Made by a program: the position numbers and the translations under genes. This document shows positions 34,010 to 35,595 of a DNA stretch of 45,413 nt, piece by piece. The stretch lies in the IMG/VR virus record IMGVR_UViG_2522572021_000012; one strand, given 5' to 3'. The notes beneath the pieces were generated by a model. The model was not told where the DNA came from. It was given only the letters and a program-made list of their open reading frames with translations, and made no database searches. The stretch is from a virus. Its lineage: Duplodnaviria > Heunggongvirae > Uroviricota > Caudoviricetes. Numbering within the stretch: position 1 is the first letter of the stretch; every line of letters starts with the position of its first letter.

Positions 34010-34137
34010 ATGACAGTAGTCATTACATATCTGGCTGACGATAACGCCAGAAATCGCCGCAGAGCACGCAGACAGGCTCAACGTGAACAGGCAATGCAAG
34101 AGCAGCGACTGGCGCGAAAAATTGCGCGAAAGCTCTT
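34010..34137 (+). pseudogene. N/gp24-like antiterminator, 5' part (interrupted by IS)
   Basis: GGAGG RBS then MTVVITYLADDNARNRRRARRQAQREQ (arginine-rich motif); reading frame runs into the IS terminal repeat at 34138. Confidence 0.65.
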
Positions 34138-34179
34138 TGAACCGCCCCGGTTTTCCTGGAGAGTGTTTTATCTGTGAAC

Positions 34180-35067
34180 TCAGGCTGCCAGATCATCGTT
34201 TCTGATGGAAGCATAATAAGCTTTTTCTGCTTCTGCCGGAGGGATATGACCCAGCCTTCCCAGCAATCGTCGATTGTTATACCAGTCCACCCACGTGAGT
34301 GTGGCCAGTTCCACTTCTGCACGGTTTTTCCAGCTCTTACGGTGTATTACCTCCGCTTTGTAAAGACCATTGATGCTCTCCGCCATCGCGTTGTCATACG
34401 AGTCACCTGTACTCCCTGTTGATGCCAGCAGTTTTGCTTCTTTTAGTCGCTCCGTATAGGCCAGTGATACATACTGAGAACCTTTATCACTGTGATGGAC
34501 TGTGCCGGACGGCCGACGGGCCCACAACGCCTGCTCCAGTGCATCCAGCACGAATGTCGTTTCCATAGACGATGAGACTCGCCACCCCACGATACATCCG
34601 GCAAACACATCAATGATGAACGCCACATAGACGAAGCCCTGCCATGTGCTGACGTAAGTAAAATCAGCCACCCACAGCTGGTCAGGACGTTCTGCCACGA
34701 ACTGACGGTTTACGCGGTCGCCTGCGGAAACGGCTTTCCGGCTGACGGTAGTACGGACCTTTTTACCCCGGAGAACACCGGCAAGTCCCATAACCGCCAT
34801 GAGGCGCGCCACTGTACATCTGGCCACCCTGATACCTTCGCGTAACAACTGGCGCCAGACTTTACGCACACCGTACACCTGATGATTTTCATCGTATACG
34901 CGCTGTATCTCTCTCTTCAGCCAGTCATCGCGCTGAGCACGGGCACTGCGTTTATCAGGATGATGTCGCTGTTGCTGACAGTGGTAATACGTTGACGGGG
35001 CAATATGCAGTTCACTGCATACCGGTCCGACCCCGTACTGCTCACGCAGCTTATCCAGCAGCGGCAT
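34180..35067 (-). CDS. IS3-family transposase OrfB (DDE integrase domain)
   Basis: 295-aa ORF; recognised as IS629-type OrfB; ~97% identical to the copy at 38418-39308. Confidence 0.8.
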   Translation of the reverse strand: MPLLDKLREQYGVGPVCSELHIAPSTYYHCQQQRHHPDKRSARAQRDDWLKREIQRVYDENHQVYGVRKVWRQLLREGIRVARCTVARLMAVMGLAGVLRGKKVRTTVSRKAVSAGDRVNRQFVAERPDQLWVADFTYVSTWQGFVYVAFIIDVFAGCIVGWRVSSSMETTFVLDALEQALWARRPSGTVHHSDKGSQYVSLAYTERLKEAKLLASTGSTGDSYDNAMAESINGLYKAEVIHRKSWKNRAEVELATLTWVDWYNNRRLLGRLGHIPPAEAEKAYYASIRNDDLAA

Positions 35068-35393
35068 TATTTTTTCCAGAGGCGGTCGAACTCCGCCTTC
35101 GCAAAATAAGCGGAAGCCTGGCGAAGGATATCGTTACTGCGGCGCAGTTCACGATTTTCACGTTCCAGCTCTTTCAGACGCTGACGTTCAGCGGTGGTGA
35201 GTCCACCATCACCACTCCCGGTATCCCGCTCATGCTGACGAACCCACACACGCAGAGTCTCTGGTGTACAGCCAATCTTTGGGGCAATGGAACAAATTGC
35301 CGCCCATTGTGAGTCATATTCGCCCTGACTTTCCAGAACCATACGAACTGCCCGTTGACGGACCTCGGGGGAAAAACGTGTATTTTTAGTCAT
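35067..35393 (-). CDS. IS3-family transposase OrfA (HTH)
   Basis: 108 aa, [31 protein letters not shown]; ends in an A-run overlapping the orfB start (-1 frameshift site). Confidence 0.8.
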
Positions 35394-35448
35394 CCTGTTT
35401 ACCTCTTTCTCAGGGAGTTTAGTCTCCAGGATTCCCGGGGCGGTTCAC

Positions 35449-35595
35449 TCTGGTTGCGTCAGAGCAGACAAAGCAGCATCACTCGGAAGCCTTCGCTGCA
35501 AGAAGGCAGATGAATGCAGTGGAAGTGTTTGCCTGCCAAACGTAGCTATTTACGCGGCAGGATACCGGAAATCAAAACAACTGACGGCGAGGTAA
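35449..35595 (+). pseudogene. N/gp24-like antiterminator, 3' part
   Basis: Frame continuous with the 5' part once the IS and one 3-bp repeat are removed; ends AIYAAGYRKSKQLTAR, recalled as similar to the P22 gp24 C-terminus. Confidence 0.6.

Follow-up and report, generated by a model that had tools for sequence, protein, structure and literature searches.

When the N gene of a lambdoid prophage is broken by an insertion sequence (IS), can the prophage still be induced? This question concerns IMG/VR record IMGVR_UViG_2522572021_000012, a window of 45,413 nt, i.e., the whole stretch of DNA analyzed here, in which an IS lies inside a gene for an N-type antitermination protein at 34010-35595. The window corresponds to positions 2563818-2609230 of NZ_CP006027.1 (Escherichia coli O145:H28 RM13514) and runs from dacD to a xis-like gene adjoining int and sbcB. 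The element was listed by Cooper et al. in Table S2 as 'Prophage 12' (2,565,255-2,610,389, 45,135 bp, sbcB, lambda-like, no effectors), and N was not discussed for it in that paper (PMC3893438). It was found that the N gene is split into two halves by the IS insertion. The account as a whole, i.e., an HK620-type N split by an IS629-group element and a prophage that is presumably defective as a result, is regarded as highly probable.

Structure of the Interrupted N Gene

The 5' fragment of the N gene was located at 34010..34137 on the + strand and contains codons 1-42 plus 2 nt. A sequence-only reading of this DNA had claimed a GGAGG ribosome-binding site (RBS) and an arginine-rich motif for the open reading frame (ORF) at 34010, and both were present. 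The RBS is at 34000-34004, spaced 5 nt from the ATG at 34010. The ORF translates as MTVVITYLADDNARNRRRARRQAQREQAMQEQRLARKIARKL, in which residues 12-27 form the arginine-rich motif NARNRRRARRQAQREQ. This motif fits the A-x-x-R-R-x-x-R-R pattern of lambda N (copy in mEp213) and P22 gp24. The frame crosses into the IS terminal repeat at 34138, as the same reading had placed it and as mapping of the inverted repeats bore out. The resulting chimeric ORF, here called N', reaches its stop at 34177 and encodes 55 residues, i.e., 42 native residues followed by 13 that the junction codon and IS sequence encode, the IS-derived tail being FEPPRFSWRVFYL.

The 3' fragment was located at 35448..35595 on the + strand. 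It comprises the right copy of the target-site duplication (CTC, 35448-35450), codons 43-90 and the stop codon at 35593-35595. The N frame is picked up again at 35449, reads through to ...PNVAIYAAGYRKSKQLTAR, and has the C-terminal end ...AIYAAGYRKSKQLTAR followed by TAA, which ends at 35595 as had been expected. With the IS ends defined, the two parts are in frame. In-silico removal of the 1310-bp IS with 3 bp gave an ORF of 273 nt and 90 codons, which agrees with the gene of about 90 codons that had been foreseen; removal of the IS with 4 bp broke the frame. The residue at the joint of the authentic protein is Ser (KLSGC), given by dropping the left CTT. With this Ser, the reconstructed protein is identical to N of the Stx2c-converting phage Stx2_5044 (LC645426). 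The N coding sequence is thus interrupted after codon 42 and is a pseudogene in its present state.

This pseudogene is not visible in the public annotation. In the RefSeq record annotated by PGAP (NZ_CP006027.1), the 5' half of N is without annotation and 35449-35595 is labelled 'hypothetical protein, incomplete, missing N-terminus'; neither half is labelled N.

The IS629-Group Element Inside N

The element in N spans 34138..35447 (1310 bp) on the - strand, opposite in orientation to N. It was assigned to the IS629/IS1203 group of the IS3 family by its inverted repeats, transposase ORFs and ALIL pseudoknot. The inverted repeats (34138-34162 and 35423-35447, 25 nt each) are complementary at 22 of 25 positions and have TG...CA ends. 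The element opens with TGAACCGCCCCGG... at 34138 and closes with ...CCGGGGCGGTTCA at 35447. Two transposase ORFs were found on the - strand, i.e., orfA (35067-35393), encoding a 108-residue HTH_Tnp_1 protein, and orfB (34180-35067), encoding a 295-residue rve/DDE protein. The profiles matched in these proteins were HTH_Tnp_1, HTH_21 and rve, and the orfB protein scored 312 bits against NCBIfam NF033516 (transpos_IS3). The ALIL frameshift pseudoknot was located at 34996-35112 (Rfam RF01497, 120.9 bits).

PGAP names the element 'IS3 family transposase, programmed frameshift' and gives no narrower group. With the IS629/IS1203 group it shares the length of 1310 bp, the TGAACCGCCCCGG... ends, orfA and orfB with a -1 frameshift, and the ALIL pseudoknot. 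Given its 95.5% identity to an O157 copy (Z1813) that PGAP annotates as 'IS1203 family', the label 'IS629-like' in the sequence-only reading was fair. Because it is only 95.5% identical to the O157 IS1203 copy and 94.9% identical to a second copy in the window, the element is, on these identities, a distinct isoform of the group. Copies 100% identical to it were found on several E. coli plasmids. IS629 is the commonest IS in RM13514 (PMC3893438).

The 3-bp flanks of the IS, defined by alignment to IS-free alleles, are CTT on the left (34135..34137) and CTC on the right. They match at two of three bases, and the empty site contains CTC once. The empty site in Stx2_5044 reads AAGCTCTCTGGTTGC (short form AAGCTCTCTGG), and the window reads AAGCTCTT, then the IS, then CTCTGGTTGC. 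The T at 34137 makes a Phe codon at the junction of N and the IS. The imperfect duplication, which differs from the perfect ATC of the second window copy, could come from a point change after insertion or from an imprecise event. Two other explanations were considered and rejected. The two IS copies are in inverted orientation and could have recombined to invert the stretch between them; this was rejected because the 3' half of N is correctly oriented and the segment has the same order as in Stx2_5044. The assignment of T at 34137 to the IS itself was rejected on symmetry, which would call for A beyond the other end, where C is found.

Uninterrupted Alleles and the Origin of the Insertion

The sequence-only reading had made its case depend on uninterrupted alleles in related prophages, and such alleles were found in Stx2_5044, HK620, mEp213 and E. 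coli chromosomes. The query made by joining the two flanks gave a colinear, uninterrupted match in Stx2_5044 and also matched annotated N genes in mEp213, HK620, HK630, HK140 and others. Compared with Stx2_5044, the window shows 100% identity over the 3307 nt to the left (30830-34136) and 99.9% identity over the 2593 nt to the right of the IS (35448-38040), and the two are colinear over the empty site. Full-length uninterrupted N alleles were carried by 226 of the 5426 complete E. coli genomes searched. For the whole 1.5-kb neighborhood, only mosaic partial matches were found as IS-free copies among these genomes; the IS-free twin of the N region was found in the phage collection, i.e., in Stx2_5044.

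The junction between the IS and N was detected in only 2 of the 5426 genomes, those of the O145:H28 strains RM13514 and RM12581, both of which originate from the 2010 romaine-lettuce outbreak. This bears on the suspicion that an assembly artefact, i.e., a repeat misplaced at genome closure, put the IS into N. Copies of the IS629 group are indeed numerous, with 31 matching places in the genome. However, the same junction is present in two independently deposited complete genomes, and the flanks, which carry the target duplication, match the empty site to the base. Since the two independent assemblies agree, an artefact is excluded for practical purposes.

Stx2_5044 is a prophage of O145:H28 at sbcB. 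From Q to the end of int (window 24703-45413), it is 99-100% identical to the window, its N protein is the same as the reconstructed N, and it supplies the empty sites for both ISs of the window. It differs in carrying stx2c and different late genes, and in having no IS in N or in the abc2-like gene. Because the Q-int region is shared at 99-100% identity without both ISs, Stx2_5044 is, by sequence, a sister phage of the same lineage and locus in which N has been kept intact. It has an IS of its own at the equivalent of window positions ~42601-42604. This copy, at 9152-10467 of the phage, belongs to the IS629 group and is 99.8% identical to the second IS of the window. As it lies at a different early-left site, the same operon was hit by ISs independently in the sister prophages.

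The second IS629-group copy of the window was located in the pL operon at 38041..39350 on the + strand, where it splits an abc2-like anti-RecBCD gene (flanks 37843-38040 and 39351-39449) and is bordered by a perfect 3-bp duplication, ATC. It is opposite in orientation to the IS in N. In-silico excision restored an abc2-like ORF of 97 residues. This copy was not found in Stx2_5044, and it had not been mentioned in the sequence-only reading.

Other copies match the IS in N at 100%, and the IS-free allele matches its flanks at 100% and 99.9%. Judged by these identities, the insertion into N is a recent event and a case of ordinary prophage decay.

Family Assignment of the Reconstructed N

The reconstructed 90-residue protein matched Pfam PF25694 (N_peptide) over residues 11-90 with 57.2 bits, where the cut-off is 27.9 bits, and PHROG 271 'anti-termination protein N-like' with E = 2e-33. 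No match was obtained in the NCBIfam search, and the PDB sequence search gave nothing at E <= 10. The N of HK620 (AF335538, as annotated by Clark et al. 2001) also has 90 residues and differs from the reconstructed N at 4 of them (~96% identity). The 5' fragment is 100% identical to N of Stx2_5044 and 99.3% identical to that of HK620.

P22 gp24 aligned end to end with the reconstructed N at 38% identity (E = 1e-14). The ends are common to both proteins, i.e., MTV(V)ITY at the N-terminus and A(I/L)YAAG(Y/H)RKSKQ(L/I)TAR at the C-terminus. The sequence-only reading had taken the C-terminus for that of P22 gp24. This was close, although not exact: the P22 end is ALYAAGHRKSKQITAR, and 13 of its 16 residues match the reconstructed N. 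In the pairwise comparison with lambda N, no significant similarity was found outside the motif.

By family membership, this is a genuine antiterminator gene of the N family. The earlier label, an N/gp24-like antiterminator, therefore stands as to family, being borne out by PF25694, PHROG 271, the nut sites and the homology to gp24, but the motif and boxB are not those of P22. P22 gp24 and lambda N have the same role and position, i.e., first gene of pL, an N-terminal arginine-rich motif, and nut sites composed of boxA and boxB. In P22, however, both the arginine-rich motif and boxB differ from those in the window. Since boxB differs, the more exact label on sequence grounds is HK620-type N, a homolog of gp24 with different nut specificity.

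In the pL operon of mEp213 (PV340538), two N genes were observed, a lambda-type gene at 1041-1373 and an HK620-type gene at 2526-2798. The second is ~1.2 kb downstream of the first and ~96% identical to N of the window. Before this second gene, at ~2151, the left arm of boxB is replaced (GCCCTCCGAAATGCGGG), as if a recombination joint lay inside boxB.

Operators, nut Sites and the N Leader

The gene order around N is cI (32201-32917), an hkaS-like ORF, oL/pL (33439-33478), nutL and N at 34010. N is thus the first gene after oL/pL, and the order is colinear with the annotated records of HK620 and P22. The operator cluster oL consists of ATACC-N5-GTAT repeats at ~33439-33475, which enclose a pL-like promoter (TTTACA-17-TATTCT, 33450..33478, + strand). 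This promoter was predicted by promoter scan and aligns with the annotated pL of P22 and HK620; pL/OL1-3 of HK620 align here as well. Over 31469-33567, HK620 is 98% identical, and the segment includes cII, cro, a 238-residue cI, a 122-residue hkaS and oL/pL, i.e., the immunity module is the same. The HK620 N gene is without an IS, and the late genes of the window are not HK620-like. The pL leader of P22 is nearly identical to that of the window up to boxA.

The nutL site was located at 33525..33564 on the + strand, 40-80 nt past the predicted pL start. Its boxA, GCTCTTTAAC, is at 33525-33534, and its boxB hairpin, CCCGCCGAAATGCGGG, is at 33549-33564 with a folding energy of -10.5 kcal/mol. The nutR site was located at 31851..31892 on the - strand, directly downstream of cro, with boxA at 31883-31892 and boxB at 31851-31866. 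These sites are identical to the features 'nutL' and 'nutR' of HK620 (AF335538). The boxA and boxB strings occur in two copies each in the 45 kb, and none of 100 shuffles gave two matches.

The boxB core of the window, CCCGCCGAAAUGCGGG, forms CCCGC-CGAAAU-GCGGG, i.e., a 5-bp G+C stem with a six-base loop. Five-base loops are found in boxB of P22, GCGCU-GACAA-AGCGC (GCGCUGACAAAGCGC), and of lambda, GCCCU-GAAAA-AGGGC, and both of these are GNRA-like pentaloops. One possible reading of the CGAAAU loop is a GAAA tetraloop that a C-U mismatch closes. Gally, a phage with P22-like C2 immunity, has this boxB too, and the first 54 residues of its N, motif included, are the same. This pairing despite a different immunity supports a cognate relation between motif and boxB. 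In the literature, nothing was found on how the motif NARNRRRARRQAQ reads an HK620-type boxB. It could be proposed that the two represent an uncharacterised mode of peptide-RNA recognition, with the motif-only N' as a natural boxB decoy, but this is considered very improbable. The six-base loop is a trait of a widespread N allele and not of this locus.

The leader between nutL and N is longer than in HK620. In HK620, boxB is ~110 nt from the RBS of N, whereas the window has ~420 nt extra (33568-33984) between nutL and the RBS. This leader contains a strong Shine-Dalgarno sequence with a 3-codon mini-ORF (AGGAGG-N7-ATG GTG CAC TAA, 33596-33607) and several hairpins, and its folding exceeds that of shuffles (z = -3.3). 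Pieces of it were also observed upstream of N in Gally and mEp213. The Rfam search over 31400-36400 returned only the ALIL pseudoknot of the IS and nothing for the long leader.

Predicted Consequences for Prophage 12

Acting with host Nus factors, which are recruited at boxA, N would let RNA polymerase pass the tL and tR terminators. Lambda N contacts boxB through its N-terminal motif, NusA through a central segment and RNA polymerase through its C-terminus. The 55-residue N' retains the RNA-binding motif and loses all that is C-terminal to it. As the NusA- and polymerase-binding parts mapped in lambda N are missing, N' should not antiterminate.

Terminators on which N would be needed were predicted in both early operons. 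In the pL operon after N, the terminator scan gave three terminator-like hairpins on the + strand, at 36067-36086, 36213-36230 and 36251-36270. The latter two map onto tL2A and tL2B of HK620 (96.6% identity over 36107-36279), so that the same pair is present in both phages. These tL2A/B-like sites are upstream of kil, erf and the other early-left genes through xis, and int is just past the window end on the opposite strand. On the pR side, the scan gave a tR2-like intrinsic terminator with a 10-bp stem and a T-run at 29086..29110 on the - strand, between the replicative helicase gene and ninB and upstream of Q. The entire nin region is also upstream of Q. With the tL2A/B-like and tR2-like terminators present, dependence on N is expected, and the presence of the nin region with the tR2-like site means that this is not a nin-type N-independent arrangement.

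After loss of repressor, pL transcripts should end in the untranslated IS or at tL2A/B, and the IS, as 1.3 kb of untranslated sequence, should exert polarity on transcription from pL. Such a stop would shut out kil, erf, xis and int. Transcripts from pR should end at tR1 and the tR2-like site, so that Q and the late genes would be essentially off. Prophage 12 would then be unable to excise efficiently or to make particles despite its intact late genes. That Prophage 12 cannot excise efficiently or express its late genes is, from this analysis, the likely outcome. The sequence-only reading had also taken the prophage to be probably locked in or defective, and it is reasonable to consider it so on the tL2A/B-like and tR2-like terminators and the single N copy.

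Several points weigh against this outcome. The terminators are consensus predictions or database annotations, and Rho-dependent sites are beyond the prediction tools used. No induction or phage-production experiment on Prophage 12 was found in the literature, and the loss of function and of inducibility is argued by analogy with lambda N. RM13514 also has 20 prophage or prophage-like elements, and a dissimilar N with the same boxB specificity would escape megablast. Defective prophages of enterohemorrhagic E. coli (EHEC) can be mobilised with the help of co-resident prophages; in O157 Sakai, prophage-prophage interactions led to the induction or transfer of many prophages that in-silico analysis had classed as 'defective' (PMC2669165).

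These points leave a small chance for a different explanation, i.e., that N is disrupted and the prophage is yet inducible through leaky read-through, a boxB-matching N from another lambdoid prophage, or other help. An N-modified RNA polymerase, if provided in trans, could traverse the IS, and the late genes, int and Q of Prophage 12 are all annotated intact. However, the DNA of the 5' half of N, which encodes the motif, was found by megablast at a single place in the RM13514 chromosome, and so no near-identical N is available in trans. Recognition between N and boxB is allele-specific, as the boxB and motif of P22 differ from those of the window. The nin region and the tR2-like terminator also speak against independence from N, and the second IS adds damage to the pL operon. 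A likely non-inducible state of Prophage 12 is therefore preferred.

It is hardly probable that N' is itself active, for example as a boxB decoy against superinfecting HK620-type phages, and that the insertion is selectively retained for this reason. In its favor, no damage is seen in the RBS, start codon, motif or nutL, and Nun of HK022 offers a precedent of a motif-bearing protein that excludes phages through boxB. In a lysogen, however, pL is repressed, and N' would not be made when exclusion matters. Moreover, Nun requires a specific C-terminal region that arrests polymerase, whereas the tail of N' is fortuitous. The restriction of the insertion to one outbreak clone and the second IS in the operon both fit neutral decay. 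The loss of N by decay is thus retained as the explanation.

Other Features of Prophage 12

Prophage 12 is a lambdoid, non-Stx prophage, i.e., without Shiga toxin genes, and its immunity and early-left region are of HK620 type. The sbcB locus in O145:H28 is occupied by Stx1a, Stx2c or non-Stx phages (bioRxiv 10.1101/2024.03.06.583675). On the - strand at ~24571-24726, tRNA-Thr and tRNA-Asn genes were observed between Q/pR' and the holin gene, and pR' was assigned to TTGACA-18-CATAAT at 24812-24783. This tRNA position is where Stx phages carry tRNAs and stx; Prophage 12 is without toxin genes there. Two further lesions were marked by PGAP, i.e., a remnant of a tail-fibre-assembly gene on the opposite strand beside an intact copy (1655-1753) and a frameshifted early-left hypothetical gene (42959-43137).

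Meaning of the N Disruption

The disruption of an essential prophage gene by an IS is on record for nu1 of Sp4, interrupted by ISEc8, and no case of N was described in the same study (PMC2669165). In the literature, nothing specific was found on N disruption in Prophage 12 or on LC645426. The specific disruption of N appears to be undescribed, yet ordinary: loss of prophage genes through ISs is a well-documented route of decay in EHEC, and both components, the N gene and the IS, are known and annotated elsewhere. Its practical value is small, and no new question is opened by it. The finding adds a further datapoint for the degradation of EHEC prophages by IS629-group elements. In the 2010 romaine-lettuce outbreak clone, the prophage at sbcB is probably a remnant that can no longer be induced; its IS-free sister of the same lineage and locus is an Stx2c-converting phage.

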